Made by a program: the position numbers and the translations under genes. Shown here one piece after another: positions 1 to 40,379 of a stretch of 64,000 bases of DNA. Each line of letters starts with the position of its first letter. Within the stretch, counting starts at the first letter, position 1. The DNA is from Escherichia coli (GTDB taxonomy: Bacteria; Pseudomonadota; Gammaproteobacteria; Enterobacterales; Enterobacteriaceae): NCBI RefSeq assembly GCF_030013205.1, contig NZ_CP122648.1; one strand, 5' to 3'. The notes below the pieces were generated by a model. It made no database searches, was not told the DNA's origin, and saw only the letters and a program-made list of their open reading frames with translations.

Positions 1-571
1 CGGTGACATCACGAGCAGAAACATCGCAGCCGCCAGTGGGCACCACCACATCATTATTGGCGTAAATATTCCACACAAACTGGAAATCATCGCTGTTATA
101 GTTGTTGGTCTGTCGCAAAATAAGCACGGCAATTAATGAGCCAGCTTTAATCACCACCCCGCCCGCACTGCTCACAGGCGTCAAATAAGGCGCCACCGGC
201 CACGGCTTATCCGTTCTCGAATTATAAACAACCCGCGGCGTTTCACTGGTGGTCGGAAATGGATAGCTACTGCCACTATATTTTACGGTCCCGGAAAAAT
301 TAGATAACACGCCGCCATAAGCCGAGCCTCGTTGCAGTGTGACATAATCTGTAATGGTTTCCGGGTAATCGTTATGGCAAAAGATTTGCGTCGAAAGATC
401 CACGACCAGGTTTTGCCCCACATTCACGGCGGGCGCAAGGTTTACATAAACATTGGCGCTGCCACCGCCAATAGGGATAGCGGTGCCATTGGCGGTTTTA
501 CAGGCGAATGACCAGGCATTTACCGACCAGCCCATCAGCAGTACAGCAAACAGGTTAATAACTCGTTTCAT
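1..571 (-). CDS. fimH: FimH type 1 fimbrial adhesin, N-terminal part (3' end lies beyond window start)
   Basis: Reverse-complement translation from ATG at 569-571 gives signal peptide MKRVINLFAVLLMGWSV and later DFQFVWNIYANNDVVVPTGGCDVSARDVT; last gene of fim operon order; no stop before window edge. Confidence 0.9.
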   Translation of the reverse strand, partial: MKRVINLFAVLLMGWSVNAWSFACKTANGTAIPIGGGSANVYVNLAPAVNVGQNLVVDLSTQIFCHNDYPETITDYVTLQRGSAYGGVLSNFSGTVKYSGSSYPFPTTSETPRVVYNSRTDKPWPVAPYLTPVSSAGGVVIKAGSLIAVLILRQTNNYNSDDFQFVWNIYANNDVVVPTGGCDVSARDVT

Positions 572-590
572 TACAATCATCTCTTCGGCT

Positions 591-1094
591 TCAGCTGTAG
601 GTATAGGTGATGCTAATCACTGCCTGAATGGTTCCCTGAGTGGCTCCGCCATTTACCGTCAATGCTCTGACCTGTAACGGGAAGTGCGCTGATTGTGAGG
701 AATCATCCACCTGAACTGTTTTGGTTGCGCCACTATTCAATGTGTTGCCACTGTCATCCTGTAGCTCTAACTGGATGTTTTGCGCGGTCCCCTGGTTTTT
801 ATAATATCCGGTACTGTCGGCTGCCCCGCTGAAGCTGGCAGTGACCCTCGACGTTCCCACCGGACAATTAGTCAACTCAAGCGCAACATCATGCCAGGCC
901 GATGCCGCCCCGGCAGACATCAGACTGAAAGAATAAAGATCGCCGAGATCTACCGTGGCATTGGTGGTGGAAACCGTGCACGGTTTGGCGACGACCTTAC
1001 CGTTCACCGTGATGGTGACATCGGCTGCCTGTATCGTCGCACTTGCGAGCGCCAATATTGCCGCCAATACATACCCACGTTTGCACCATTTCAT
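591..1094 (-). CDS. fimG: FimG minor fimbrial subunit (167 aa)
   Basis: ORF track protein MKWCKRGYVLAAILALASATIQAADVTITVNGKVVAKPCT...; pilin-like signal peptide; position between fimF and fimH. Confidence 0.92.
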   Translation of the reverse strand: MKWCKRGYVLAAILALASATIQAADVTITVNGKVVAKPCTVSTTNATVDLGDLYSFSLMSAGAASAWHDVALELTNCPVGTSRVTASFSGAADSTGYYKNQGTAQNIQLELQDDSGNTLNSGATKTVQVDDSSQSAHFPLQVRALTVNGGATQGTIQAVISITYTYS

Positions 1095-1106
1095 GAGCCT
1101 CTCCAG

Positions 1107-1637
1107 TTACTGATATTCAAGAGTGAAGGTAGCCGTGGCATTGATATGCCCCGCAGTGACAGGCACCTGTGTCGCCATTAGCCGGGCGTAAAAATTCAGC
1201 GTATTTGGTTTACCCGGCGTCAGGGTCGTCCACGAAATCGCGGACGATGGGGCATTAATGGGTATCTGATTTTGTTGCTCATTCAGAAGCTGTATTCCCA
1301 GTCCCGCAACCGCTGACACCGTATTTTCAAGTGCAAGCAGGTTGGCATTGTGGCTATCTGCAACACCGGTAAACCCAACTTTTACGGCAGAAACGGCATT
1401 ACCACAGGGTGACAGCAAAATACGAAATGGAACGACAGGAGTCGTCGCGCCAATGTTGTTAAATTGCTTCGCCGCGTTTTCCATCAGATCAACAGTAAAA
1501 TTGGTTGATTCAGCGGCCACACTACAGCCGTTATCTCTGACATAGCCGCGGATAGTAATCGTGCTATCCGCAGCCAAAGCGTGACTTACCGCCAGCCACA
1601 AAAAAGCGCACAGAAGATAAAAAGGTTTGTTTCTCAT
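1107..1637 (-). CDS. fimF: FimF minor fimbrial subunit (176 aa from second Met)
   Basis: ORF track protein [23 protein letters not shown]...; operon position. Confidence 0.9.
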
Positions 1638-1646
1638 CACGCCCCC

Positions 1647-4283
1647 TTAACGACATTCAGCTGATAGCTGAGTTAATAACTGCTGCTGACTCTCTGGTGG
1701 CAGTTGATAATTGGCGACACAGTGAGCATTTTCCTCTTCTCCCCATTTCACCTGAACTTTTCCCGCTAAAGGCATTCCGCTGAGGTAAACCTGACCATTA
1801 TCCGCAACAATGCCGCTACTCTGGCTACTCTCTGATGTCACCATCGCCCCAAACGGCAGCGGCTTATTATTGTGGGTTAGCGTCATGAGCAGTTTTATCC
1901 CAACGCGCGCTTTAAACTCTGCTCGCACGATCGCCCCACGGGTGGGAACAACGTTAGCGACCGCGTTATCTAAATCGACGTTATCAGCCAGGGTATTGGT
2001 ATCCAGCGCTACTCTGTTCTCCCGATATTCAGTGGCATAAGGCAGCACGGCATAACCGCGCCAGTCGGTACGCACCCCCGTCTGGTTTTCGACTTTTGCA
2101 TCTTTTGCGCCAGGCGCTTTAACAAGCACCACCGTATCGTTTAACGGCTGCCCCAGCGTTACGCCATTGGCATGAGCCAGTACCCCACCGCTGACTCCGT
2201 AATAGAGCTGCTTAATATCATCGCTATGGCTGTAACCGATGTTGGCATTGCCGTAACCACCGCGATAATTCAGCGTGGCGTAGCCTGTACTTCCGCTATT
2301 ACCATCACCTCCCCCGGCGTAACCGGTTTGCACGCTATAGCTGAGGTTGTTGTCTTCCAGCAACGTACCGTATACACCGACCAGATTGGTCATCCGACCG
2401 TTGAGATCGTGTGACATGCTGTAACTGGCACTGGCATGTCGCCACTGAGATTTACTGTCAGAACGCAGCCAGTGGCTGAAAGGAATATTGACGTTAAGCG
2501 CTAACATCTGATCCCGTCCTTTTTGCCAGGCGTTTTTCGTCAGGCTATAGCTGAGCGTCCAGTTGATATCTTCGAATGCAGTATTTAAACCAGCCTGGAA
2601 TTGCTCATCGACATTACTCGTTCCCCAATAAGTTTGATGGCTACCACTCAAATACAGTGTTGATGTGCGCCCGAGTTGCTGAGTAACGGTGAGTTGTAAT
2701 TTCCCGCGTTTGTTATAAGCGAGATTGTAATAGTCGGTGAATTTCGGCTTAACCTGAATAACACCATCCTGTGTTTCGATGTTGTAGCCATTCATTCGAC
2801 TGTATGTTGTATCAGCGAAATTAAAATATCCGCTGGTCGAATAACGGTAACCCACTAACTGAATATTCGTGCCTGATTCATTGAGCGATTTGTTATAGAG
2901 AAAACGCACCGATTGTCCGTCATGCTGACTGTCATCGGGAAGTGTGGAATTAGCCTGCGTCATATCCACAGACAGAGCGCCCAGTGCCCCCATGTTTTTC
3001 CCGATACCGAAATTAAACGCACGATAACGATCCGCCAGTTGCGTTCCACCATATATTGTCCAGCCAGCCGGAAGGCCGTGGAGTAATGTACTCTGGAAAA
3101 AGCGGGGTTTTTCCTGCTGCGCATTTCCACTACGGTATTCTCCTGCCGTAATGGAATAACGAGTATGCCCTTCACGTTGCAAAAGCGGGACTGACGAATA
3201 GGGTACGGTAAAGATCTGCGTGCTGCCGTCAGCCTCTTTAATCGTTACCTGCAAGTCACCACTATTACCTGCGGCATAGATATCGTTGATGGTAAAAGGC
3301 CCCGGCGGCACCGTACTATTATAAATGTCATACCCATTTTGTTTAATAGTGACCTGTGCAGTACCACGAGCAATACCGTGGATCACCGGAGCAAATCCTC
3401 TTTGGCTATCGGGTAACATATTGTCATCTGAGGCCAATTGTGCGCCGCGAAAGTTAATACCATCGAAAATATCGCCCTGGGTATAACCATCACCCAGCGT
3501 CAGCCGGGAACGTAACGGAATTATGTCTCGCTCAAGCCAGGTATTGATATGCTGCCATTTATTTTTGCTACCTGATGAACTGTCGCTACTGTTATAACTC
3601 CAGGTGGTATTGTCGCGTAAACGCCACGCACCAATATTTAACCCACTCTGTAGGTTTAAATATGCATAATGGCTGTTACCCCCAATCCGATTCTGTACAC
3701 TATTTCCGCTGAAATTATAATTGAGCAATCCGGCATTAATACCAGGATCCCATAACTCAGGAGGAATATAACCACGCGCGCGATTACTCATAAATGCCTG
3801 AGGGATCGTCAGGTTGAGTCGCTGCTGACCAACATCCAGATGCGCAGTAGCGTCATGGATCATTGAGGTTAATGGCACGCAGGCATCATCCGCCAGCAGA
3901 TTCATACCGGAGACAGAAGCCGTATTCAGCTCCATACTTGCAAGTTGCGCGCGTGTCAGGCAGGGAACAATCCCTTGTTCACTGTCGCCCGTATTAAATG
4001 TGACATCACGCGTTGCCATATAACCATTATTCAAATAGATATCGACACGATACGTCCCTGGCGGTAATTCTTGCCCATTTTCAAAACGCGATAAATCGGC
4101 CACAGCCTGGGGATCATCCGCTAAAAAGCGCGGATTAAAATAGAGTTCGGCAGATGACAAAGGTGCCTGTGCGGCAAAAGCACAGGCGACAAAGAGCCGG
4201 ACAAAAAAACCAGCCAAACGATGCTTACGAATATGCAAGCATTGTGTGTTTCGCTGGTAAAGTCTTAAATTCAGATATGACAT
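1647..4283 (-). CDS. fimD: FimD outer-membrane fimbrial usher (878 aa)
   Basis: 878-aa ORF MSYLNLRLYQRNTQCLHIRKHRLAGFF...; usher size and position downstream of chaperone gene. Confidence 0.95.
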   Translation of the reverse strand: MSYLNLRLYQRNTQCLHIRKHRLAGFFVRLFVACAFAAQAPLSSAELYFNPRFLADDPQAVADLSRFENGQELPPGTYRVDIYLNNGYMATRDVTFNTGDSEQGIVPCLTRAQLASMELNTASVSGMNLLADDACVPLTSMIHDATAHLDVGQQRLNLTIPQAFMSNRARGYIPPELWDPGINAGLLNYNFSGNSVQNRIGGNSHYAYLNLQSGLNIGAWRLRDNTTWSYNSSDSSSGSKNKWQHINTWLERDIIPLRSRLTLGDGYTQGDIFDGINFRGAQLASDDNMLPDSQRGFAPVIHGIARGTAQVTIKQNGYDIYNSTVPPGPFTINDIYAAGNSGDLQVTIKEADGSTQIFTVPYSSVPLLQREGHTRYSITAGEYRSGNAQQEKPRFFQSTLLHGLPAGWTIYGGTQLADRYRAFNFGIGKNMGALGALSVDMTQANSTLPDDSQHDGQSVRFLYNKSLNESGTNIQLVGYRYSTSGYFNFADTTYSRMNGYNIETQDGVIQVKPKFTDYYNLAYNKRGKLQLTVTQQLGRTSTLYLSGSHQTYWGTSNVDEQFQAGLNTAFEDINWTLSYSLTKNAWQKGRDQMLALNVNIPFSHWLRSDSKSQWRHASASYSMSHDLNGRMTNLVGVYGTLLEDNNLSYSVQTGYAGGGDGNSGSTGYATLNYRGGYGNANIGYSHSDDIKQLYYGVSGGVLAHANGVTLGQPLNDTVVLVKAPGAKDAKVENQTGVRTDWRGYAVLPYATEYRENRVALDTNTLADNVDLDNAVANVVPTRGAIVRAEFKARVGIKLLMTLTHNNKPLPFGAMVTSESSQSSGIVADNGQVYLSGMPLAGKVQVKWGEEENAHCVANYQLPPESQQQLLTQLSAECR

Positions 4284-4349: not shown

Positions 4350-5075
4350 TTATTCCATTACGCCCGTCATTTTGGGGGTAAGTGCGCCATAATCATTTAT
4401 TGTTCGGTAAGTAATATTGCTTCCTGCATCAGAAGGCAATTTAACCGTGCTTTCGCCCATTGGAGGCACCAATGCATTTTCAAGAACCCGGGTTCCGGCA
4501 TTCAACTCTGTTACCGTCAGGTAATAGGGTGTCGGGTTAATCAGAGTCAGAGAATTCGCGCTACGACGAAATCTTAATTTTTCTGCGGCCTGATCGGGTG
4601 GCAACGCTAATTTAGCCGGGCGATAGTACAGTTTAATGCGGCTGATAATTGCGAGCTGTAGCGTATTCTCAGTCAATTTTGATTTATCCATTGACGGAAT
4701 CGCTTTAACGTTCATCCAGAATAAACTTTCCCGATCCTGTGGCAATTGGTTATTTGTTGCATCAAGAATACGTAAGGTATTCTCTTTTTTTCCCTTCATC
4801 GCAAACAGAGGTGGCGTCACGATAAAACGACCATCCTTTACACCATCGGCATTTTCCACCCATGATTGAATTAAATAGGTGCTATTTTCATCATTATTTG
4901 TCACGGCAAGTTGCACTTGTTTTTGCCCTGCCGGATAAATTACGCGAGTCGCACCTAAGGCCACTCCCGCTTCGGCGCGTCCGGCAACCATCATTGCCAT
5001 GAACATCAGGATACCTGCCAGCAAGCAGAATGTTATTTCCTGCGATTTCCTTACATTGACGTTTTTATTACTCAC
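4350..5075 (-). CDS. fimC: FimC periplasmic fimbrial chaperone (241 aa)
   Basis: ORF MSNKNVNVRKSQEITFCLLAGILMFMAMMVAGRAEAGVALGATRVIYPAGQKQVQLAVTNN...; PapD-like chaperone. Confidence 0.95.
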   Translation of the reverse strand: MSNKNVNVRKSQEITFCLLAGILMFMAMMVAGRAEAGVALGATRVIYPAGQKQVQLAVTNNDENSTYLIQSWVENADGVKDGRFIVTPPLFAMKGKKENTLRILDATNNQLPQDRESLFWMNVKAIPSMDKSKLTENTLQLAIISRIKLYYRPAKLALPPDQAAEKLRFRRSANSLTLINPTPYYLTVTELNAGTRVLENALVPPMGESTVKLPSDAGSNITYRTINDYGALTPKMTGVME

Positions 5076-6751: not shown

Positions 6752-7348
6752 TTAAACCTCTTCTCTTTTTAATTTTTCGTTTATAAGATTATTTCTTTCC
6801 CATAATCCGGCAAAACGAGCAGCATTACTGGCGGTATAACGCACAGTATGGCGAATATTTCGATGCCCGAGATAATCCTGAATTAAACGGGTATCTGCAC
6901 CACGCTCCGCCAGTTCATAACCGCAAGCATGCCTTAACATATGAGGATGAGTCTGCGTTACGGTTCCAGCTTCAATACCGGCATCGCGAATAATGCGATA
7001 GGCCTGCTGGCGAGAAAGCCGACTCCCGCGGCGAGAAATAAATATAGCGTCGGTCCGGTCAGCGCCTTTCCAGTTAGCACGTTCCTGGGTCCAGCGTTCC
7101 ACGGCTTCACGCTCATCAAAACGTAACGGGTGAACGGTAGAAAATCCGTTCTTCAGTCGGCGAATATTTATTCGACCTTCATTAAGGTCAAGGTCCTGAT
7201 AATGCAGATCAAGCAGTTCACTAATACGCATCCCATGCCGATATGCCAACAGAATAAGACAATAATCTCTGGCTCCCGTTGCCCCGTAACAAACCGCCTG
7301 CATCATGGCCTGAACTTCTTTACCGGTAAGATAACGACGTTTACTCAC
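6752..7348 (-). CDS. fimE: FimE tyrosine recombinase (198 aa), ON-to-OFF switching
   Basis: ORF MSKRRYLTGKEVQAMMQAVCYGATGARDYCLILLAYRHGMRISELL...HPHMLRHACGYELAERGADTRLIQDYLGHRNIRHTVRYT. Confidence 0.95.
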   Translation of the reverse strand: MSKRRYLTGKEVQAMMQAVCYGATGARDYCLILLAYRHGMRISELLDLHYQDLDLNEGRINIRRLKNGFSTVHPLRFDEREAVERWTQERANWKGADRTDAIFISRRGSRLSRQQAYRIIRDAGIEAGTVTQTHPHMLRHACGYELAERGADTRLIQDYLGHRNIRHTVRYTASNAARFAGLWERNNLINEKLKREEV

Positions 7349-7824: not shown

Positions 7825-8427
7825 CTATAAAACAGCGTGACGCTGTCGTCCTCTGGCCCTATCCCAGATGCCGTAAAAACGCCCTGCATTGCTGGCGGTA
7901 TACCAGACAGTATGACGAATATTGCGATGCCCAAGATAATCCTGGATAAGTCGCGTATCTATTCCCATATTCGCCAAAGCAAAACCACACGAATGGCGTA
8001 ACATGTGCGGATGAATCTCCAGTGACAACCCGGCATTACCACCGGAAGTCGAGATAATATGGTAAAACTGTTGCCGAGAAAGCGGATTCCCCTTACGCGA
8101 TAAAAATACCCATTCGCTCTCAGCATGCGGGTACGAAGTACGGATACTCAACCAGTTTTTTAAAGCCTGAACTTCTTTGTTCAATAGCGGGTGCGTTGTT
8201 GAAAAGCCTTTTTTTAATCGATGGATATAGATACACTTTGCCTTAAGATCAATATCCGAAATCCTCAATCGACAAATTTCACTCGCCCGGAAACCATGAA
8301 TAAAACAAAGCAAAGTCAGACAATAATTACGTGCTGCATGAGGCCCGGTATTTGCTGCTTTAAGGAGTGATTCGATTTCACTATGGGTCAGGAAGTTCCT
8401 TTTTTTGTTATCAGCCTTATTCTTCAT
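7825..8427 (-). CDS. fimB: FimB tyrosine recombinase (200 aa)
   Basis: ORF MKNKADNKKRNFLTHSEIESLLKAANTGPHAARNYCLTLLCFIHGFRASEICRL...; paralog of fimE upstream of it. Confidence 0.95.
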   Translation of the reverse strand: MKNKADNKKRNFLTHSEIESLLKAANTGPHAARNYCLTLLCFIHGFRASEICRLRISDIDLKAKCIYIHRLKKGFSTTHPLLNKEVQALKNWLSIRTSYPHAESEWVFLSRKGNPLSRQQFYHIISTSGGNAGLSLEIHPHMLRHSCGFALANMGIDTRLIQDYLGHRNIRHTVWYTASNAGRFYGIWDRARGRQRHAVL

Positions 8428-9440
8428 CGTTTTCCCTTATAATTACAGACGCGCACTAGCTGTGCTGGGTTAGCAATAATCCAACATTTTAATCCTGATT
8501 ATGTTTATAAAAGCGAACGTTTGCTTAATAACTAACGTAAGTGGACCAGTTCTTCTGAGTGAACTTAAATGGAGTAGCGATAGTTACTTATAATAACTTT
8601 GCCATACAAACGCCATGCTCTTGCATGCTATGTACCTTTATATATTTATAAATCTGATACGAATCGAATAATAACCCTCATCATTAATGCAACTAATCTT
8701 ATCTATATATCATGTGATATGTTCTGTAACAAGTAAAATCAACATAAAAAATTCAGCAAAATTTAATATTCGTTCAACTAGCCGTCTCACATATGACATT
8801 ATTAGTCAACTGCATTTGCCACAAAATGGCTATTTCATGGAACGCAGTAATTTCTTAGTGGCTATTATCATGCTAATTCTTAGATCCCTAGCGATTATTC
8901 CTGCCTGGTTCGTCAGCTTAGGCCATGAGATTGTTACATTCCCTTTTATCCTGGAGATATGGGGGAACGCAGGCGACGCTTTTTCATCTACATCCGTTGG
9001 TAACTATGGCTTTGGTCACTACGACTTAAACCTTCCTCAATCACAGCTATTCGCCGGGCGATACGGCAAACAAACTAAGTGAAACATCATCCTGAAAACA
9101 CCAACATCAACAAGCCTCTCCAGATCGACATCAGGAGTGACCAGTTACAAGCCACAAACCAAGAAACATATTTCATGATGAGAATTATACTCAGCCTGAT
9201 GGCGGGTAAACACTTATTTTCACCAAGCTCACTGAGTTAGCTTGCAAAGCTTTCTTTGTTTAGATTCTAAATAAATTATTTACAAAACAGATTGTTAAAA
9301 GAAAACCTTTAGTTTTTGAAGACCAATGCAAGTGTTCGTCTGGCTTCACATGGCATCTGCTTCTTAGGAAAAGATCGACATATTTTGTGACACGAATTGC
9401 AAATCTGGTTTTGTTGTATGGATTGCGTGATTTTTGATCT

Positions 9441-9460
9441 GGTATAACAGGTATAAAGGT
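9441..9460. promoter_or_regulatory. Nan box (GGTATA direct repeats), putative NanR operator in the fimB-nanC intergenic region
   Basis: GGTATAACAGGTATAAAGGT at 9441-9460, matching the GGTATA-repeat operator type of sialic-acid regulated promoters. Confidence 0.6.
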
Positions 9461-9721
9461 GCACCGCGATAGTCAATGAGACTGGGCATCTCGTAATCTA
9501 TGGCAAACATCACTTCAGTTCTTTCTCATCGGGTGATGAAAACGCACTTCAGTCTGAAAGGAATATGAAAATGAGATCAACAGACACTCTATTTTATGAC
9601 TCTGGGTAAAATGGATTGAGTAAGCGATATTAGACTGGCCCCCTGAATCTCCAGACAACCAGTATCACTTAAATAAGTGATAGTCTTAATACTAGTTTTT
9701 AGACTAGTCATTGGAGAACAG

Positions 9722-10087
9722 ATGATTGATGTCTTAGGGCCGGAGAAACGCAGACGGCGTACCACACAGGAAAAGATCGCAATTGTTCAGCAGAGCTTTG
9801 AACCGGGGATGACGGTCTCCCTCGTTGCCCGGCAACATGGTGTAGCAGCCAGCCAGTTATTTCTCTGGCGTAAGCAATACCAGGAAGGAAGTCTTACTGC
9901 TGTCGCCGCCGGAGAACAGGTTGTTCCTGCCTCTGAACTTGCTGCCGCCATGAAGCAGATTAAAGAACTCCAGCGCCTGCTCGGCAAGAAAACGATGGAA
10001 AATGAACTCCTCAAAGAAGCCGTTGAATATGGACGGGCAAAAAAGTGGATAGCGCACGCGCCCTTATTGCCCGGGGATGGGGAGTAA
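9722..10087 (+). CDS. insC: IS2 transposase OrfA (InsC)
   Basis: [56 protein letters not shown]... Confidence 0.9.
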
Positions 10088-10950
10088 GCTTAGTCAGCCG
10101 TTGTCTCCGGGTGTCGCGTGCGCAGTTGCACGTCATTCTCAGACGAACCGATGACTGGATGGATGGCCGCCGCAGTCGTCACACTGATGATACGGATGTG
10201 CTTCTCCGTATACACCATGTTATCGGAGAGCTGCCCACGTATGGTTATCGTCGGGTATGGGCGCTGCTTCGCAGACAGGCAGAACTTGATGGTATGCCTG
10301 CGATCAATGCCAAACGTGTTTACCGGATCATGCGCCAGAATGCGCTGTTGCTTGAGCGAAAACCTGCTGTACCGCCATCGAAACGGGCACATACAGGCAG
10401 AGTGGCCGTGAAAGAAAGCAATCAGCGATGGTGCTCTGACGGGTTCGAGTTCTGCTGTGATAACGGAGAGAGACTGCGTGTCACGTTCGCGCTGGACTGC
10501 TGTGATCGTGAGGCACTGCACTGGGCGGTGACTACCGGCGGCTTCAACAGTGAAACAGTACAGGACGTCATGCTGGGAGCGGTGGAACGCCGCTTCGGCA
10601 ACGATCTTCCGTCGTCTCCAGTGGAGTGGCTGACGGATAATGGTTCATGCTACCGGGCTAATGAAACACGCCAGTTCGCCCGGATGTTGGGACTTGAACC
10701 GAAGAACACGGCGGTGCGGAGTCCGGAGAGTAACGGAATAGCAGAGAGCTTCGTGAAAACGATAAAGCGTGACTACATCAGTATCATGCCCAAACCAGAC
10801 GGGTTAACGGCAGCAAAGAACCTTGCAGAGGCGTTCGAGCATTATAACGAATGGCATCCGCATAGTGCGCTGGGTTATCGCTCGCCACGGGAATATCTGC
10901 GGCAGCGGGCCTGTAATGGGTTAAGTGATAACAGATGTCTGGAAATATAG
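10045..10950 (+). CDS. insD: IS2 transposase OrfB (InsD), 301 aa, overlapping orfA as in the IS3 family
   Basis: [37 protein letters not shown]...DNRCLEI with DDE-type region. Confidence 0.9.
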
Positions 10951-11216
10951 GGGCAAATCCAGATATAGCTTACGAAAATTCAAATCAATTAAACATCAGC
11001 AGAGATTTTATACTCAGGTATTTAATCTGGCCCTCTGTTTATTTAAATAATGTGGAAAGAGATTTTTCACAGGAGATATTATACAAAAAATATAAAATAC
11101 AGCTACCGGTTGCCAAAGACACTATAAGCCTGGCAAAAAAATATTACACAACATAAATGCTAATTGTTTATGCGGGCTTTGTATTGCTTTCTGTATCCTA
11201 CAAATGAGTGAAATTT

Positions 11217-11933
11217 ATGAAAAAGGCTAAAATACTTTCTAGCGTATTATTACTGTGCTTTTCGTCCCCATTAATTTCTCAGGCTGCGACACTGGACGTA
11301 CGTGGTGGATATCGTAGTGGAAGCCACGCCTATGAGACTCGACTCAAAGTCAGTGAGGGATGGCAAAATGGATGGTGGGCAAGCATGGAAAGTAATACCT
11401 GGAATACCATTCATGATAATAAAAAGGAAAATGCCGCACTCAATGATGTTCAGGTTGAAGTTAATTACGCGATTAAACTTGATGATCAATGGACGGTGCG
11501 CCCGGGAATGTTAACGCATTTTAGCAGCAATGGCACACGCTACGGACCCTACGTAAAACTGTCCTGGGACGCGACAAAAGATCTTAATTTTGGCATTCGC
11601 TATCGTTACGACTGGAAAGCTTACCGACAACAAGACTTATCTGGTGATATGTCTCGTGATAACGTTCATCGTTGGGATGGATATGTCACTTACCATATTA
11701 ATAGTGATTTCACCTTCGCATGGCAAACGACGCTATACAGTAAACAGAACGATTATCGCTATGCAAACCATAAGAAATGGGCGACGGAAAATGCATTTGT
11801 TCTACAATACCATATGACGCCCGATATTACGCCATACATAGAATATGACTACCTTGACCGTCAGGGTGTTTACAACGGCAGAGATAATTTATCGGAAAAC
11901 AGTTATCGCATTGGTGTGTCATTTAAACTGTAG
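11217..11933 (+). CDS. nanC: NanC N-acetylneuraminic acid outer-membrane channel (238 aa)
   Basis: MKKAKILSSVLLLCFSSPLISQAATLDVRGGYRSGSHAYETRLKVSEGWQNGWWASMESNTW...; KdgM-family porin, signal peptide. Confidence 0.9.
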   Translation: MKKAKILSSVLLLCFSSPLISQAATLDVRGGYRSGSHAYETRLKVSEGWQNGWWASMESNTWNTIHDNKKENAALNDVQVEVNYAIKLDDQWTVRPGMLTHFSSNGTRYGPYVKLSWDATKDLNFGIRYRYDWKAYRQQDLSGDMSRDNVHRWDGYVTYHINSDFTFAWQTTLYSKQNDYRYANHKKWATENAFVLQYHMTPDITPYIEYDYLDRQGVYNGRDNLSENSYRIGVSFKL

Positions 11934-11952: not shown

Positions 11953-13059
11953 ATGAATAAAACAATAACGGCGCTTACTATCATAATGGCTTCATTTGCC
12001 GCAAACGCGTCTGTATTACCGGAAACTCCTGTGCCATTTAAAAGTGGTACCGGAGCAATTGATAACGACACTGTCTACATTGGTTTAGGTAGCGCAGGTA
12101 CGGCATGGTACAAGCTGGATACACAGGCCAAAGATAAAAGATGGACAGCGTTAGCTGCATTCCCTGGCGGACCGAGAGATCAAGCAACCTCTGCATTTAT
12201 TGATGGCAATCTGTATGTGTTTGGCGGCATTGGCAAAAACAGCGAGGGCTTGACTCAGGTATTTAATGACGTACACAAATACAACCCCAAAACCAATAGC
12301 TGGGTTAAATTGATGTCGCACGCGCCGATGGGCATGGCGGGCCATGTGACTTTTGTACACAACGGCAAGGCTTATGTTACTGGCGGTGTTAACCAGAATA
12401 TCTTCAATGGCTATTTTGAAGATCTCAACGAAGCTGGAAAAGATTCAACCGCTATAGATAAAATCAACGCCTACTATTTTGACAAAAAAGCAGAAGATTA
12501 TTTCTTCAATAAGTTTCTGTTGTCTTTTGATCCCTCAACACAGCAATGGAGTTACGCTGGCGAATCTCCCTGGTACGGAACGGCTGGTGCGGCGGTTGTG
12601 AATAAAGGTGATAAAACCTGGCTTATTAATGGCGAAGCCAAACCAGGATTGCGAACGGATGCCGTATTTGAACTTGACTTCACCGGTGATAATTTAAAAT
12701 GGAATAAGCTTGATCCCGTCTCATCACCAGATGGCGTCGCTGGCGGTTTTGCGGGGATAAGCAATGATTCTCTTATATTTGCTGGAGGGGCCGGATTCAA
12801 AGGTTCACGAGAAAATTACCAGAACGGTAAGAACTATGCGCATGAAGGCCTGAAAAAATCATATAGCGTTGATATTCATCTTTGGTATAACGGGAAATGG
12901 GATAAATCGGGTGAATTATCGCAAGGTCGGGCCTACGGAGTATCATTGCCCTGGAATAATAGTTTATTAATTATTGGCGGTGAAACTGCAGGCGGCAAAG
13001 CAGTGATGGATTCAGTTTTAATTTCTGTGAAGGATAATAAAGTCACAGTACAAAACTAA
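11953..13059 (+). CDS. nanM: NanM N-acetylneuraminate mutarotase (Kelch-repeat periplasmic protein, 368 aa)
   Basis: ATG at 11953 gives MNKTITALTIIMASFAANASVLPETPVPFKSGTG...; track ORF 11845-13059 is an upstream extension of the same frame. Confidence 0.88.
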   Translation: MNKTITALTIIMASFAANASVLPETPVPFKSGTGAIDNDTVYIGLGSAGTAWYKLDTQAKDKRWTALAAFPGGPRDQATSAFIDGNLYVFGGIGKNSEGLTQVFNDVHKYNPKTNSWVKLMSHAPMGMAGHVTFVHNGKAYVTGGVNQNIFNGYFEDLNEAGKDSTAIDKINAYYFDKKAEDYFFNKFLLSFDPSTQQWSYAGESPWYGTAGAAVVNKGDKTWLINGEAKPGLRTDAVFELDFTGDNLKWNKLDPVSSPDGVAGGFAGISNDSLIFAGGAGFKGSRENYQNGKNYAHEGLKKSYSVDIHLWYNGKWDKSGELSQGRAYGVSLPWNNSLLIIGGETAGGKAVMDSVLISVKDNKVTVQN

Positions 13060-13123: not shown

Positions 13124-14104
13124 ATGAACGCAATAATATCGCCTGATTATTACTATATTCTTACCGTTGCTGGTCAGTCTAATGCCATGGCGTATGGCGA
13201 AGGACTGCCATTACCGGACAGGGAAGATGCGCCTCATCCCAGAATTAAACAATTAGCGAGATTTGCGCATACGCATCCCGGAGGCCCGTCATGTCACTTT
13301 AACGACATTATTCCACTGACTCACTGCCCACACGATGTTCAGGATATGCAGGGTTATCACCATCCTCTGGCAACGAATCATCAAACACAGTACGGCACCG
13401 TTGGCCAGGCACTGCATATAGCACGGAAATTACTGCCCTTTATTCCTGATAATGCAGGGGTTCTCATCGTTCCGTGTTGCCGTGGCGGATCGGCTTTTAC
13501 CGCGGGCAGCGAAGGAACATATTCAGAACGGCACGGAGCCAGCCATGATGCTTGTCGTTGGGGAACGGATACTCCGCTATACCAGGATTTAGTCAGCAGA
13601 ACGCGAGCCGCACTGGCAAAAAATCCGCATAACAAATTCCTCGGCGTATGCTGGATGCAAGGCGAATTTGACTTAATGACCAGTGACTACGCGTCACACC
13701 CTCAACACTTTAATCATATGGTTGAAGCCTTTCGTAGGGATCTAAAACAATACCATTCTCAGCTTAATAATATTACTGACGCACCGTGGTTTTGCGGCGA
13801 TACCACCTGGTACTGGAAAGAAAATTTCCCTCATGCGTATGAAGTTATTTATGGCAATTATCAAAATAATGTTTTAGCCAATATTATTTTCGTCGACTTC
13901 CAGCAACAAGGTGAAAGAGGACTGACGAACGCGCCTGATGAAGACCCGGACGATTTAAGCACGGGATATTACGGTTCAGCGTACCGGTCACCGGAGAACT
14001 GGACGACGGCACTGCGAAGCAGTCATTTCAGCACGGCAGCCCGTCGGGGGATTATTTCTGACAAGTTTGTAGAAGCAATTTTGCAGTTTTGGCGCGAAAG
14101 GTGA
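13124..14104 (+). CDS. nanS: NanS 9-O-acetyl-N-acetylneuraminate esterase (326 aa)
   Basis: ATG at 13124 gives MNAIISPDYYYILTVAGQSNAMAYGEGLPLP...; follows nanM. Confidence 0.88.
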   Translation: MNAIISPDYYYILTVAGQSNAMAYGEGLPLPDREDAPHPRIKQLARFAHTHPGGPSCHFNDIIPLTHCPHDVQDMQGYHHPLATNHQTQYGTVGQALHIARKLLPFIPDNAGVLIVPCCRGGSAFTAGSEGTYSERHGASHDACRWGTDTPLYQDLVSRTRAALAKNPHNKFLGVCWMQGEFDLMTSDYASHPQHFNHMVEAFRRDLKQYHSQLNNITDAPWFCGDTTWYWKENFPHAYEVIYGNYQNNVLANIIFVDFQQQGERGLTNAPDEDPDDLSTGYYGSAYRSPENWTTALRSSHFSTAARRGIISDKFVEAILQFWRER

Positions 14105-14111
14105 GCGTTCA

Positions 14112-14762
14112 TTAATTTGATTTATTCGCATCCATCAGCGCTTTTAACTGCTCCGGCGTAAACGGTGGTTTGCGTCGGTGCAACATCGCATGGCAATTAG
14201 GGTACACAGGCAGCAAATCATTAACTGGATCCAGCTGGTAATCCTCTTTAATGGCTGACAGCGGCACCAGGTGATGCACATGGATAAAGCCTTCAGCGAT
14301 ATCACCATAGATCTTCACCAGATCAACACCGCATACGTTGCACTGGCATCCATGATGTTCGACCGCTTTATCTCGGGCCTTTTTATCGCGTTCATAGCGG
14401 TTTACTGTCACCTTTATCGCCGCACCTTCAAGGTATGTCTCCTGCGACGGCAACTCATCCGGGAACAGAACGTCGGCTATGGGAGCCGCAGCGGCTTTAT
14501 CCAGATGAATATGAAATCCCTGCTCTATGAGTAGCTTGACACATTTAGATTTTATTCCGCCGGTGAAATCCGCAGGGGTAAATTGCGTCCCCGTCATCAA
14601 TGTCGCTGCGATGCCAGCAATCGCCTTCGAGGGGTAACGTCGGCCATGATATTCAATCTCATACAACCGCGCAGGCTGGAACTGATGAGTTTCTCCCGCA
14701 TCCCATAAATGGATAGCTTCGATGATATACCGCCGCGGAAGATGATCAGGGAGTTTATTCAT
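14112..14762 (-). CDS. HNH endonuclease-domain protein (216 aa), possibly restriction or defence nuclease
   Basis: C-terminal motif ...CQCNVCGVDLVKIYGDIAEGFIHVHHLVPLS...YPNCHAMLH (Cys pairs and HNH His/Asn residues); N-terminal domain unassigned. Confidence 0.7.
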   Translation of the reverse strand: MNKLPDHLPRRYIIEAIHLWDAGETHQFQPARLYEIEYHGRRYPSKAIAGIAATLMTGTQFTPADFTGGIKSKCVKLLIEQGFHIHLDKAAAAPIADVLFPDELPSQETYLEGAAIKVTVNRYERDKKARDKAVEHHGCQCNVCGVDLVKIYGDIAEGFIHVHHLVPLSAIKEDYQLDPVNDLLPVYPNCHAMLHRRKPPFTPEQLKALMDANKSN

Positions 14763-20069: not shown

Positions 20070-20587
20070 ATGTCTGACCGCGCCACTACCACAGCTTCCT
20101 TAACGTTCGAGTCGCTTTATGGCACACATCACGGCTGGTTGAAAAGCTGGCTGACGCGCAAACTCCAGTCTGCTTTTGATGCAGATGACATTGCCCAGGA
20201 CACTTTTTTGCGGGTAATGGTCAGCGAAACGCTCTCGACGATCCGCGATCCTCGCTCCTTCCTCTGCACTATCGCCAAACGCGTGATGGTGGACCTGTTT
20301 CGCCGAAACGCGCTGGAAAAAGCGTATCTGGAGATGCTGGCGCTTATGCCGGAGGGGGGAGCGTCTTCACCTGAGGAACGCGAAAGCCAACTCGAGACCC
20401 TACAACTCCTCGACAGCATGCTGGACGGGCTAAACGGCAAAACACGTGAAGCGTTTCTGCTTTCGCAACTGGATGGTCTGACATACAGCGAGATTGCGCA
20501 CAAACTCGGTGTTTCCATCAGCTCCGTGAAAAAATACGTGGCGAAAGCCGTCGAGCACTGCCTGCTGTTCCGTCTGGAGTATGGGTT

Positions 20588-20591
<4 letters not shown>
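20070..20591 (+). CDS. fecI: FecI ECF sigma factor (173 aa)
   Basis: [52 protein letters not shown]... Confidence 0.95.
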
Positions 20592-23952
<3,361 letters not shown>

Positions 23953-23960
23953 TGTGTTAA

Positions 23961-23982
23961 CGCCCGGCTTGCCGGGCTTTTA
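23961..23982 (+). terminator. Hairpin between fecA and fecB (CCCGGCTTGCCGGG followed by T-rich run), partial terminator/attenuator
   Basis: Inverted repeat at 23963-23976 directly after the fecA stop. Confidence 0.45.
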
Positions 23983-23996
23983 GCTGGAATGTGATT

Positions 23997-38161: not shown

Positions 38162-38293
38162 GTCATCAAGTTTCACCAAACGTGTTTTGAGCGTCTCCAA
38201 ATTCAGCACTATGAAATCCACCACCCTTAATAAAAAACGCGCCAGGAAGCGTCCCAGCGCATTCAAGCATCACTCAACTGAATAGTAACTGAT

Positions 38294-40204
38294 TCAACCT
38301 GTTTGTTTGCCACGCTTTCTTCGCAACGCATCTCTGACAGCATCCAGCCCGTCAGGAATGTTGAATTCCGCTATATCAGGTAACGAAAAATCAATTTTCT
38401 CCACGACTTCAATCATATGAATTGGTTTGAGGTCTTTGCTATATCGCACTTCCGTTTCAGTTTCGCCGCGCACATGCCCAAGTAGCTGCGCTCGTAATTC
38501 TGAGCTAACGCCCTTCTCCTTGAGCAAAGTCGAAACTGAGTGGCGAAAAGAATGGAAAGATTTGCTTCTGTTCCTCTCGAGTTTCAACCGCCCCGCAAGC
38601 AACGATTCATTGAACCATGCGGAAACTGGCCTACCATAGCCTTTTGTTTTATGTGGTTTAAGCTCCGGGAAGAGACGGGTATACCCTGCATCTTTTAAGG
38701 CGTTCACGTAGTCGATGAAACCGAGACTAATCAGCTTTGAATGGAGCGGAATCTTGCGGCGAGCATTAGCATTTTTGAGTTTCTTTCCGCTTTCATTATC
38801 GCTTTCAAGGTTCAAATAATAGACGCCGTCGTCTGCCAGAACATCACTCAGCAGTAACTGAGCGATTTCATTAACTCGCGCCCCCGTCATCAAGCCCAGC
38901 AAAGGTGCCCAATAGTTAAACGGGCAATATTGATGGAATCGCCCTTGCGCATTGCGTTCAACAGTTCCAGCCTCAAACCACGGTAACGAAAAAATCGCTT
39001 TAATTTCATGCGGTTCAAATATGTCAGTGTGATCCTGATCTCGCTCATCTTTATCATCGGATGGAAAAAAGTTTTCGCATGGCGATTTCAGTAGCTTACC
39101 GTCAGCAACAGCCCACTTCATTGCACCATAAATGCCGTTGATATACTTCCTAACGGATTCCTCAGTCATCAATTTATCGCCGCATTCTGCCGCTTTGGCG
39201 ATTAACTGATCCAGCGTTTTCACTCCATATTTAGCTTTGACTAAATTACGGTTTGCTGGGATCGTGCGCAGTTTGCTCTCATAAGCCCGGAGGAAATCGC
39301 GATCAAAATCTTCCAACTGAATGTCACCCATCGCTTCGATCATAAAGCTGAAATAGTTACGGATATCACTTATAGCCGACTCCGATACCTTGCCCTTGCG
39401 CCGATGCTTTAGATATTCAGAGCATAACCACGACAGATTCTTAGTGTAATACTTTCGATTAACATACTCGTTATCGATAGTAGGGGCAGGAGCGGCAAGA
39501 GGCACGGTAGGATGAACACTAGCGACTGGAGGCGTGGTCTTAGCCAGCCAATCAAGCCTTAGGCTTTCTGCATGGACTTTATTGATCAAAAGCGTATCGG
39601 GTTTAATTACCGGCCAACCGGAGGTGAAAAACCAACCGCCTTTAGCGTCGCTTCCGGCAGTTTTGAACACCGAAGCTTCTGAATAACCGTCGCTAATAAT
39701 GTTACGTAAATGTGCTGGTTGCGCAGTGAGTTGCAGATAGCCTTTAGCAACCCCCTCGATACCCTTCTCTTCGCCATAATTAAGAACGTAACTGCCATCA
39801 AGCGGGTCTAGCTCAGCCTCAGAGAGCGCTGCAACATAAAAGCCAGCCTGCCCCGTCGCCAGCCAGAATACGGGCAGATTACGGTTCATCACCGCCTGTA
39901 TTAATTGCGCAACAGGCAACTCAACTGACTGAGCAAAGTTAGAAAGCGAGATCATACCCTCACCAGCAAGCAGCGGGGCGCAGTCACTTAAAGTTCGATA
40001 ATCCAATTGTTCATACTCTTGTAAGGTCTGATACCAGACCGCCAACAGGAGCGCGGACTTCTGCTTTGCTTCATGAAGATCGTGAGTGCCTGTTGAAGTG
40101 TGAATCTCACACTGTCCTGCGTATCGACGAAAACGTTGGGGAATGCTAATGCGGACAACATAAATGCCGCTGGTTCGACGATAGAGTTTATATCGCTGAG
40201 ACAT
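38294..40204 (-). CDS. Large tyrosine recombinase / integrase (636 aa from first ATG; 650 aa from TTG at 40246)
   Basis: C-terminal catalytic region ...GARVNEIAQLLLSDV...HSFRHSVSTLL...LLGH...EVRYSKD (R, H-x-x-R, H, Y); start adjacent to the 3' end of tRNA-Leu, same orientation. Confidence 0.85.
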   Translation of the reverse strand: MSQRYKLYRRTSGIYVVRISIPQRFRRYAGQCEIHTSTGTHDLHEAKQKSALLLAVWYQTLQEYEQLDYRTLSDCAPLLAGEGMISLSNFAQSVELPVAQLIQAVMNRNLPVFWLATGQAGFYVAALSEAELDPLDGSYVLNYGEEKGIEGVAKGYLQLTAQPAHLRNIISDGYSEASVFKTAGSDAKGGWFFTSGWPVIKPDTLLINKVHAESLRLDWLAKTTPPVASVHPTVPLAAPAPTIDNEYVNRKYYTKNLSWLCSEYLKHRRKGKVSESAISDIRNYFSFMIEAMGDIQLEDFDRDFLRAYESKLRTIPANRNLVKAKYGVKTLDQLIAKAAECGDKLMTEESVRKYINGIYGAMKWAVADGKLLKSPCENFFPSDDKDERDQDHTDIFEPHEIKAIFSLPWFEAGTVERNAQGRFHQYCPFNYWAPLLGLMTGARVNEIAQLLLSDVLADDGVYYLNLESDNESGKKLKNANARRKIPLHSKLISLGFIDYVNALKDAGYTRLFPELKPHKTKGYGRPVSAWFNESLLAGRLKLERNRSKSFHSFRHSVSTLLKEKGVSSELRAQLLGHVRGETETEVRYSKDLKPIHMIEVVEKIDFSLPDIAEFNIPDGLDAVRDALRRKRGKQTG

Positions 40205-40294: not shown

Positions 40295-40379
40295 TGGTGC
40301 CGAAGGCCGGACTCGAACCGGCACGTATTTCTACGGTTGATTTTGAATCAACTGCGTCTACCGATTTCGCCACTTCGGC
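40295..40379 (-). tRNA. leuX: tRNA-Leu (CAA anticodon), leuX
   Basis: Reverse complement reads GCCGAAGTGGCGAAATCGGTAGACGCAGTTGATTCAAAATCAACCGTAGAAATACGTGCCGGTTCGAGTCCGGCCTTCGGCACCA with long variable arm and CCA end. Confidence 0.95.

Follow-up and report, generated by a model that had tools for sequence, protein, structure and literature searches.

A close described relative of the locus analyzed here is found at the start of the gal operon, where the galEP3 (gal3) insertion places an IS2 element between the promoter and the first gene. At bgl, flhDC and comparable loci, genes that are cryptic or silenced by H-NS are switched on by IS1 or IS5 elements inserting upstream, phage P1 is an example of a regional hot spot for IS2, and an IS2-generated fusion promoter at ampC was reportedly described by Jaurin and Normark in 1983. 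Such fusion promoters, in which the right end of IS2 with its outward -35 faces the downstream gene, are documented for ampC, acrEF and neoR (PMC9330008). With regard to the element itself, IS2 has regional hot spots and prefers intrinsically bent targets; its left end (IRL, 42 bp) holds a weak promoter, P_IRL, and a region bound by OrfA, and its right end (IRR) measures 41 bp (PMC3299598). IS2 also contains Rho-dependent terminators, and its insertion in gal is a precedent for termination within the element, with a loss of downstream expression that inhibition of Rho reverses (PMC3737525). As for the regulator concerned, NanR operators are defined as tandem GGTATA repeats 2–3 nt apart near a GATC (PMC3658417, PMC8012715), and they form part of the promoter region, where they follow immediately downstream of the RNA polymerase site (PMC8012715). 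In K-12, NanR binding and Neu5Ac-responsive repression of the adjoining operon are known, and the nanCMS operator is located upstream of the putative start (PMC3658417). A study on fim inactivation in Shigella reported IS insertions in fim genes, none of them in the fimB-nanC intergenic region (PMC4374849). It is in this intergenic region, between the Nan box and nanC, that an IS2 is inserted in the window, i.e., the whole stretch of 64,000 nucleotides of Escherichia coli DNA that was analyzed (Table 1).

Table 1. Coordinates of the features of the fimB-nanCMS region in the window.
Feature	Position	Strand	Remarks
fimB	7825..8427	-	Intact; divergent from nanC
Second GATC	9373-9376		Upstream of the Nan box
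CRP-like half sites TGTGA-N6-TTGCA	9386..9401	+	Inside the reported NagC operator O_NC1 region
GATC and Nan box (putative NanR operator O_NR)	9436..9460	+	GGTATA-AC-AGGTATA-AA-GGT(GCA); reads GATCTGGTATAACAGGTATAAAGGT
Putative nanC promoter core	9452..9466	+	-10 TATAAA at 9452-9457; start at ~9455-9466; by homology to nanA
Left palindrome arm GTAAGC	9620..9625		Target palindrome GTAAGC-GATATA-GCTTAC
Left target-site duplication GATAT	9626..9630		From sequence; one copy at the homologous position in K-12
Complete IS2 (IS3 family)	9631..10961	+	1331 bp exactly; transposase reads toward nanC
IRL, left inverted repeat	9631..9672	+	42 bp; alignment of IS2 ends
orfA (InsC/TnpA repressor)	9722..10087	+	121 aa; NCBIfam NF006928 'IS2 repressor TnpA', 276 bits
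AAAAAAG (A6G) programmed -1 frameshift site	10039..10045	+	Joins orfA and orfB; from sequence
orfB (InsD/TnpB catalytic part)	10045..10950	+	301 aa; NCBIfam NF006918 'IS2 transposase TnpB', 728 bits
IRR, right inverted repeat	10921..10961	+	41 bp; alignment of IS2 ends
Candidate outward -35 TGGAAA in IRR	10940-10945	+	Presumed choice of hexamer
Right target-site duplication GATAT	10962..10966		From sequence
Right palindrome arm GCTTAC	10968-10973		Split off by IS2; target palindrome
nanC	11217..11933	+	238 codons, intact; length of K-12 NanC, no internal stop, near-identical
nanM	11953..13059	+	368 codons, intact
nanS	13124..14104	+	326 codons, intact; length of K-12 NanS

The element, which a sequence search identified as the sole IS2 copy within the window, starts with TAGACTGGCCCC (IRL) and finishes with GGGGCAAATCCA (IRR). 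These termini agree with the published end lengths and form imperfect inverted repeats with one indel in their mutual alignment. Both orfA and orfB gave full-length NCBIfam matches with scores over the curated cut-offs, the stop codon of orfB lies 11 bp from the end of the element, and the RefSeq annotation contains an IS2 transposase CDS with a programmed frameshift at 9722-10950. The copy is 100% identical to that of strain K_EC180 and shares at least 99% identity with reference copies in the best matches among thousands of records; several unrelated strains have the same transposase protein, WP_088895425.1, in their annotation. In length, ends, open reading frames, 5-bp duplication and near-identity to known copies, this is an intact IS2. 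The sequence and the comparison of its repeats thus bore out the first-pass annotation, which had described a complete IS2 flanked by a GATAT duplication. The distances given there, namely about 1.2 kb to fimB, about 250 bp to nanC and 171 bp to the Nan box, were likewise correct when remeasured (1204 bp to the fimB ATG, 255 bp from the IS2 end to the nanC ATG, and 171 bp).

The comparison with other E. coli genomes that had been proposed as a check was carried out. K-12 lacks the insertion and has the 5-bp target only once, and the empty site was found in 5022 of the 5426 complete E. coli genomes, while both IS2 junctions were present at 99.9–100% identity in seven complete, independent, pig-derived E. 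coli assemblies. The country of origin was looked up for two of these seven, ETEC4067 (Belgium) and K_EC180 (South Korea), and the sequence of the window matches ETEC4079. Because the empty site is widespread and both junctions recur in seven independent assemblies, an artefact or a chance event was excluded, and the earlier concern that the IS2 might stem from misassembly was thereby dispelled, given the shared junctions and the reconstruction of the empty site. Indeed, an assembly artefact or a misplaced IS copy, in favor of which no specific support was found beyond the general point that IS elements often cause misassembly, is vanishingly improbable in view of the perfect 5-bp duplication at both junctions, the exact reconstruction of the empty site and the occurrence of both junctions in seven complete genomes from different studies and countries. 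The flanks of the element are 100% identical over 800 bp to those of the empty-site strains 89-3156 and CM188245. This identity, together with the fact that nanC, nanM and nanS are still intact, suggests that the insertion is recent, and it was most likely inherited clonally within a pig-associated E. coli clone.

On the other side of the element, the operators through which fimB is activated, O_NR, O_NC1 and O_NC2, all remain on the fimB side of IS2, as the first-pass annotation had claimed for the operator, and control of fimB by NanR and NagC should therefore be unaffected. Decay of the fim/nan locus, suggested by the annotation of K_EC180 with a fimC frameshift and a 'partial' nanS, was also considered and rejected: the window has an uninterrupted fimC frame of 726 bp and a full-length nanS, and the 'partial' label given by PGAP is also found on nanS of K-12.

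In order to place the insertion with respect to transcription of nanCMS, the region around the Nan box was compared with the nanA promoter of K-12. The Nan box at 9441-9460 reads GGTATAACAGGTATAAAGGT and consists of two perfect GGTATA repeats and a third, degenerate one (GGTGCA), with a GATC alongside. Of the 25 bp of GATC and box, 24 (TGATCTGGTATAACAGGTATAAAGGT) are identical to the K-12 nanA operator region, and the segment 9436-9460 qualifies, as judged from its sequence, as a putative NanR operator of the sialoregulon. The similarity extends over the entire K-12 nanA promoter, to which positions 9361-9510 align with a CRP-like site, TGTATGG, GATC and box, the leader and TATGGCAA; the flanks outside the box outscored 1996 of 2000 and 1994 of 2000 shuffles. 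The CRP-like site lies 55 bp upstream of the Nan box, in comparison to 54 bp for its nanA counterpart (AGTGA-N6-TCGCA), and may be assigned to either CRP or NagC. At nanA, the box ends approximately 45 bp before the ATG and, consequently, the nanA promoter must overlap its box. Given this paralogy, and since NanR operators are promoter-proximal, we infer that the nanC promoter overlaps the Nan box as well and thus lies upstream of IS2, which would place the element approximately 170 nt into a nanC leader of about 420 nt. A consensus promoter scan, which returned chance-level matches with none at the Nan box or at the IS2 junction, was unable to decide on this position, and it was hence argued from nanA paralogy. 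When the segment 8400-11400 was scanned against Rfam, the leader gave no match to a known RNA element. The first-pass annotation had stated that the insertion separates nanCMS from the Nan box; this holds for the position, while a separation of nanCMS from its control region is supported indirectly, by the paralogy with nanA and the reported location of NanR operators.

Based on these results, we consider it most likely, with a probability of about 0.62, that IS2 exerts a polar, Rho-dependent block on nanCMS, which would uncouple the operon from NanR and CRP while the control of fimB is spared. According to this model, IS2 would sit in the long 5' leader of nanCMS, about 170 nt past the start and 255 bp ahead of the nanC ATG, and transcripts from the NanR/CRP/NagC-controlled promoter would have to traverse 1.3 kb of IS2. 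Most of orfB would be poorly translated in such transcripts, and, as Rho-dependent terminators are known in IS2, sialic-acid-inducible expression of NanC, NanM and NanS would be expected to be strongly reduced or lost. Any residual expression would amount at most to a low, NanR-independent trickle, arising either from the weak, self-repressed promoter of IS2 or from the sequence at 11053-11082, which resembles a minor promoter. The insertion itself is probably explained by the preference of IS2 for a target that is, like this one, AT-rich and symmetric, and by nanC being dispensable, rather than by a selected new circuit.

Several observations point in the opposite direction. IS2 and nanC are co-oriented, orfB ends close to the end of the element and no intrinsic terminator was predicted in the region, so that some read-through is possible. 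The open reading frames of nanCMS are intact across a clone present on two continents, which fits continued use. Furthermore, polarity is assumed for IS2 in the orientation that it shares with nanC.

If the polar block holds, a widespread porcine ETEC clone would no longer express NanC (a channel), NanM (a mutarotase) and NanS (an O-acetyl esterase) in response to sialic acid. The core nanATEK pathway would be retained, as would the input of sialic acid into type 1 fimbrial switching. The use that this clone makes of O-acetylated sialic acids from mucus could change as a result.

The first-pass annotation had proposed that the insertion may either silence or rewire nanC; of the two, silencing appears to fit better, and read-out from IS2 seems doubtful. 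Constitutive expression of nanCMS driven by IS2, independent of NanR and sialic acid, might come from a hybrid promoter (-35 in IRR, -10 in the flank) or from read-through of P_IRL/orfAB transcription, and would be in keeping with the shared orientation, the short distance from the orfB stop to the end of IS2, the lack of a predicted intrinsic terminator, the intact nanC, nanM and nanS genes and the fusion promoters documented elsewhere (PMC9330008). At the junction, TATAGC (4/6) is present at an 18-bp spacing from the -35 of IRR. However, in the promoter termed Pjunc, the obligatory 17-bp spacing is made up of the last 16 bp of IRR together with a 1-bp spacer, and promoters of this type are non-functional at other spacings (PMC3299598); at 17 bp, the flank here offers ATATAG (1/6 vs TATAAT). 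An outward -35 combined with a -10 in the flank at a functional spacing was hence not found at the junction, nor did the scan show any junction-spanning site. In addition, the 150-bp right end of IS2 was reported to be devoid of detectable promoter activity, and a neighbouring reporter is not driven by promoters that lie over 150 bp into an IS3-family element (PMC12095673), while P_IRL is weak and repressed by OrfA (PMC3299598). Finally, natural equivalents of this insertion go both ways and also interrupt the nanC coding sequence, which disfavors selection for activation. On balance, such rewiring is quite unlikely. We regard as unlikely, too, that nanC is in fact transcribed from a promoter downstream of the element, such as one near 11053-11082, so that the transcript is uninterrupted. 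The mechanism would change in that case, since the NanR, NagC and CRP sites would merely be 1.3 kb farther away, with derepression or lost activation as the outcome. The sequence TGGAAA-18-TATTAT at 11053-11082 is the sole sigma-70-like match on the nanC strand between 9100 and 11300, and NanR and NagC exert their effect on fimB across a distance of over 470 bp, which provides a precedent for long-range action. Nevertheless, the scan match is at chance level (3 found vs 3.2 expected), the paralogy with the compact nanA promoter puts the promoter, together with its operator and a CRP site, at the box, and NanR, as described, represses from a promoter-proximal position (PMC8012715).

In other genomes, IS2-family elements have inserted independently at least 18 times within this 2.9-kb region, in one orientation or the other, in strains from unrelated hosts and countries. 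All 20 mapped insertions in the region show 5-bp duplications; 14 are in the + and 6 in the - orientation, and the nanC coding sequence is interrupted by 6 of the 20. An apparent restriction to the orientation of nanC, taken as a sign of selection for read-out, was rejected as an artefact of query design, since mirror-image queries retrieved 17 genomes with the opposite orientation. Two of the insertions in other genomes lie 1 bp from the present site, and the palindrome GTAAGC-GATATA-GCTTAC has received three independent IS2 insertions in its 6-bp centre. The intergenic region is AT-rich (36% GC), and the number of palindromes in it is not beyond chance (14 vs 9.3 ± 3.8); what is notable is only that three insertions coincide at the centre of one of them. 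The repeated landings of IS2 in this region and their recurrence at the base-pair level at the palindrome are new. Convergent disruption of adaptive value, with loss of NanC being advantageous if, for example, it acts as a surface receptor or a costly channel, could account for at least 18 insertions in 2.9 kb, for the six inside nanC and for the three within 1 bp at the present site. It could also explain the approximately 35 genome instances, where the density of IS2 would crudely lead one to expect about 11, an enrichment of only about threefold, however, in a count that ignores phylogeny and the insertion tolerance of non-essential, AT-rich DNA. Among nanC-inactivating mutations, the survey covered IS2-family insertions alone, and IS2 prefers curved or regional targets (PMC3299598). 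Since the exact-site recurrences sit on the palindrome, target choice rather than selection is indicated, and adaptive disruption is very unlikely. That the nanC leader and gene form a convergent target, hit by insertions that are repeatedly selected in E. coli of animals and humans in order to shut off or uncouple the NanC porin and the sialate-processing enzymes NanM and NanS, while sparing fimB control, is similarly improbable; if it were true, NanC would carry an unrecognised cost, for instance by serving phages or bacteriocins as a receptor or by being targeted by the immune system. In another reading, IS2 may recognize the palindrome as a specific target signal. As a recurrent landing site of IS2 with hot spots at the base-pair level, the region upstream of nanC is of use in the annotation of IS polymorphisms and in the study of IS2 target choice.

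The polar block that we favor for nanCMS is not a new mechanism; the insertion is of an ordinary mutation type, and the polarity of IS2, like its regional hot spots, was recognized decades ago. As in galEP3, IS2 would lie between the promoter and the first gene, albeit in a different operon and within a leader that is naturally much longer at nanC, and the effect on nanC is predicted from the sequence. In the ampC, acrEF and neoR fusion promoters, the right end of IS2 likewise faces the downstream gene with its outward -35, whereas at nanC the flank sequence found at the 17-bp spacing, ATATAG, is not acceptable as a -10, and the end of the element lies 255 bp from the ATG. With the insertions of the bgl and flhDC type, the nanC insertion shares its location in AT-rich, regulatory intergenic DNA before a poorly expressed operon and its recurrence in independent strains; those insertions, however, lie upstream of the promoter and relieve silencing, while the IS2 at nanC would lie downstream of it. 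The insertions near nanC resemble the regional hot spots of IS2 in being clustered, in both orientations and without a strict consensus, in AT-rich and likely curved DNA, yet they differ from them in that the nanC recurrences are precise to the base pair, fall at the centre of a 6-6-6 palindrome and occur in natural isolates.

The element in the window spans 1331 bp (9631–10961; 5′ end TAGACTGGCCCC, 3′ end GGGGCAAATCCA) and is an IS2 on every structural criterion tested. Its ends form imperfect inverted repeats whose alignment requires a single indel, in agreement with the published 42-bp IRL and 41-bp IRR, the left and right inverted repeats (PMC3299598), and identical GATAT pentamers were present on both sides (9626–9630 and 10962–10966). 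Both reading frames matched their NCBIfam models at full length and above the cut-off (frame 1, 'IS2 repressor TnpA', 276 bits; frame 2, 'IS2 transposase TnpB', 728 bits), with an AAAAAAG slippery site at 10039–10045 in their overlap, and RefSeq labels the same CDS a programmed-frameshift IS2 transposase. These features bore out the complete, GATAT-flanked IS2 described in the first-pass annotation, whose distances within the 2.8-kb fimB–nanC gap were also right: the fimB ATG is 1204 bp away, the nanC ATG 255 bp, and the Nan box (9441–9460), the NanR operator, 171 bp. The nanC, nanM and nanS frames are all intact, which fits a recent insertion and is no proof of continued use. With regard to the annotation of this region, a 73-aa PGAP 'hypothetical protein' (10935–11156) begins in the IS2 right end and extends into the nanC leader, and is almost certainly a chimera made by the insertion and not a gene; nanS is labelled 'partial, missing C-terminus' by PGAP both here and in K-12 MG1655 assemblies, a label that seems to be an artefact originating in the reference model.

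The alignment of the window with K-12 broke exactly at the IS2 and the flanks overlapped by the 5-bp target; K-12 therefore has the empty site. Of 5426 complete E. coli genomes, 5022 had the reconstructed empty site (single-piece match to 80% or more of the query), and in strains 89-3156 and CM188245 it was 100% identical over 800 bp. Both IS2 junctions were found at 99.9–100% identity in seven complete genomes, all from pigs (K_EC180; ETEC4067, 4069, 4070, 4071, 4079 and 1748), with South Korea and Belgium as the countries of the two carriers checked, K_EC180 and ETEC4067, respectively. The window was 99.94% identical to K_EC180, except for a 768-bp IS1 at about 55434–56201. An assembly artefact, contemplated in the first-pass annotation, is excluded by the recurrence of both junctions and by the widespread empty site; the insertion is genuine, has been passed down within a single clone and is recent in evolutionary terms.

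Several further observations concern other loci of the window. The 768-bp IS1, located in a yjgL-like region, is without counterpart in K_EC180 and, among the 5426 genomes, is common only to ETEC4079. The type 1 fimbrial genes wholly within the window (fimA to fimG) have intact frames, whereas fimH runs off the window edge; fimC (4350–5075) is an intact 726-bp frame with a GTG start, and its annotated frameshift in K_EC180 (725 bp) is either peculiar to that strain or due to a sequencing error. A mosaic leuX island (window about 14000–40400) contains the fim–nan–fec block and, in addition to the features tabulated, holds IS66, IS3 and IS30 fragments and antirestriction, DUF932 and JAB genes.

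Coordinates of genes in the window and of IS2-family insertions mapped in E. coli genomes (positions after 10966 are window coordinates, beyond the right end of the IS2 that the window itself carries; TSD, target-site duplication)
Feature	Position	Strand	Remark
fimE	6752–7348	-	
fimB	7825–8427	-	
nanC	11217–11933	+	
nanM	11953–13059	+	
nanS	13124–14104	+	326-codon frame intact, the length of characterised K-12 NanS
HNH endonuclease	14112–14762		leuX island
fecIRABCDE operon	~20070–27615		leuX island
AbiJ-like gene	~31800–32440		leuX island
Large site-specific integrase	~38290–40200		adjoins tRNA-Leu(CAA)
tRNA-Leu(CAA) gene	40295–40379		leuX island
IS2 insertion	9004	+	HCP8S3_I1, MSB1_1D; same TSD GTAAA, counted as one event
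IS2 insertion	9023	+	3CM
IS2 insertion	9577	+	Eco_23-2667
IS2 insertion	9630	+	window's clone; TSD GATAT
IS2 insertion	10967 (1 bp along)	+	TOK-001; TSD ATATA
IS2 insertion	10967 (1 bp along)	-	GPEC1176; TSD ATATA
IS2 insertion	11090	+	PK8568
IS2 insertion	11100	-	c1-17
IS2 insertion	11122	-	HCM-22C-2, S30; two different IS2 variants, same GACAC duplication, two events
IS2 insertion	11133	-	40EC
IS2 insertion	11135	-	ECONIH5
IS2 insertion	11179	+	STEC379
IS2 insertion	11257	+	GPEC79-13-647; inside nanC
IS2 insertion	11502	+	AH01; inside nanC
IS2 insertion	11628	+	SCU-112; inside nanC
IS2 insertion	11675	+	LR536430; inside nanC
IS2 insertion	11681	+	MS119-7; inside nanC
IS2 insertion	11849	+	4FM; inside nanC

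The Nan-box part of the nanC–fimB spacer (window 9361–9510) aligned with the whole K-12 nanR–nanA promoter region (nanR–nanA spacer, L019 3078–3198), beyond the operator alone. Common to both are a pair of CRP-like half-sites (TGTGA-N6-TTGCA in nanC, AGTGA-N6-TCGCA in nanA) whose distances upstream from the box are 55 and 54 bp, respectively, the motif TGTATGG, TTGATC followed by GGTATAACAGGTATAAAGGT, and leader fragments, even TATGGCAA, the nanA start codon region. Outside the box, the scores of the upstream and downstream segments were reached by only 4 and 6 of 2000 shuffles, respectively, and these segments are significantly similar in their own right. The nanC control region is paralogous to the nanA promoter in its entirety, possibly a new observation at a small scale, and the resemblance suggests an origin by nanA promoter duplication. 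Since the nanA box ends around 45 bp before the nanA ATG, the nanA promoter has to overlap it; the literature, in which the nanCMS operator lies upstream of the putative start (PMC3658417), agrees with a promoter overlapping the box. By this likeness, we infer a nanC promoter at the Nan box (−10 TATAAA, 9452–9457; start at about 9455–9466), which would give a leader of about 420 nt in IS-free strains; the IS2 would interrupt this leader about 170 nt after the start. A vestigial 22-codon ORF begins at ATG 9501 in this nanA-like leader.

The best explanation, which we hold with a confidence of roughly 0.6, is that the IS2, standing between the putative Nan-box promoter and nanC, would uncouple nanCMS from NanR/CRP control by polarity and spare the control of fimB. 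As the first-pass annotation had stated, the operator remains on the fimB side: the fimB-activating region (window about 9160–9460) lies wholly before 9631. Sequence beyond the NanR operator toward nanC is reportedly dispensable for fimB activation, a result attributed to Sohanpal et al. 2007. The claim that the IS2 parts nanCMS from the Nan box was confirmed as to position, and the separation from the promoter would follow from the nanA paralogy.

Several lines of evidence favour a polar block above the activation of nanCMS from within the IS2, which is co-oriented with nanC. A −35 counted back from the IRR end is TGGAAA (10940–10945); however, the flank 17 bp downstream, where a fusion promoter needs its −10, reads ATATAG (1/6 versus TATAAT), and TATAGC (4/6, without the final T) occurs only at 18-bp spacing. 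A scan found no promoter across the IS2/flank junction. The 150-bp right end of IS2 had no detectable promoter activity in PMC12095673, where IS3-family promoters deeper than 150 bp inside the element also failed to activate an adjacent reporter. The earlier interpretation, that the IS2 silences or rewires nanC, is therefore partly supported, silencing being favoured and rewiring through a fusion promoter not. Some low, NanR-independent expression of nanCMS, leaving the block incomplete, is possible, since no intrinsic terminator is predicted, the orfB stop lies 11 bp before the IS end and a weak promoter-like site is found at 11053–11082, although such hits occurred at chance frequency (3 found versus 3.2 expected).

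Across other genomes, 20 insertions, each with its own 5-bp duplication, were mapped to the base; they represent no fewer than 18 independent events across a stretch of about 2.9 kb, and both orientations occur among them. They come from the junction queries, which also caught nearby copies of IS2 or of IS2-like elements of about 96% identity, and from mirror-image queries, which revealed opposite-orientation insertions in 17 further genomes. The window's site was struck three separate times within 1 bp, in both orientations; the chance of two of about 19 others falling within ±1 bp of the window's event is around 2 in 10,000 under uniform targeting (our own calculation). A perfect palindrome, GTAAGC-GATATA-GCTTAC (9620–9630 plus 10967–10973), has this site as its 6-bp centre; its left arm reads GTAAGT in K-12, TOK-001 and GPEC1176, and a second cluster of four insertions (11122 twice, 11133 and 11135) lies inside TTGCCA-N15-TGGCAA (11110–11136). 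The IS-free spacer has 36.4% GC versus 49.4% for the window, and a preference of IS2 for targets with intrinsic curvature has been reported (PMC3299598).

At the regional level, about 18,600 chromosomal IS2-family copies in the 5426 genomes predict about 11 instances here, and about 35 were observed; this approximately three-fold enrichment, a crude density estimate that counts genome instances and ignores kinship and the insertion tolerance of dispensable DNA, is only suggestive, and the firm evidence for a hot spot comes from the recurrences at the exact site. Both orientations are found among the events, and many of them disrupt nanC itself; target preference together with dispensability of nanC is the simplest reading, ahead of selection for a new regulatory output. 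TOK-001 (record L005, 1521–2443) has lost the fim operon as far as an IS1 adjoining gntP, and thus an independent nanC-leader IS2 exists there where fimB regulation is irrelevant.

An IS2 hot spot of base-pair precision within a palindrome is possibly new at a small scale. Our literature search found no published description of an IS in the nanC–fimB spacer, which makes this insertion a new instance of a familiar type of event; a nanC-leader IS2 is unsurprising to a specialist, and its recurrent, precise targeting deserves mention. While the insertion differs from IS fusion promoters, whose defining requirement is absent, its effect would, by analogy, resemble that of IS2 in the gal leader, the classical polar insertion.
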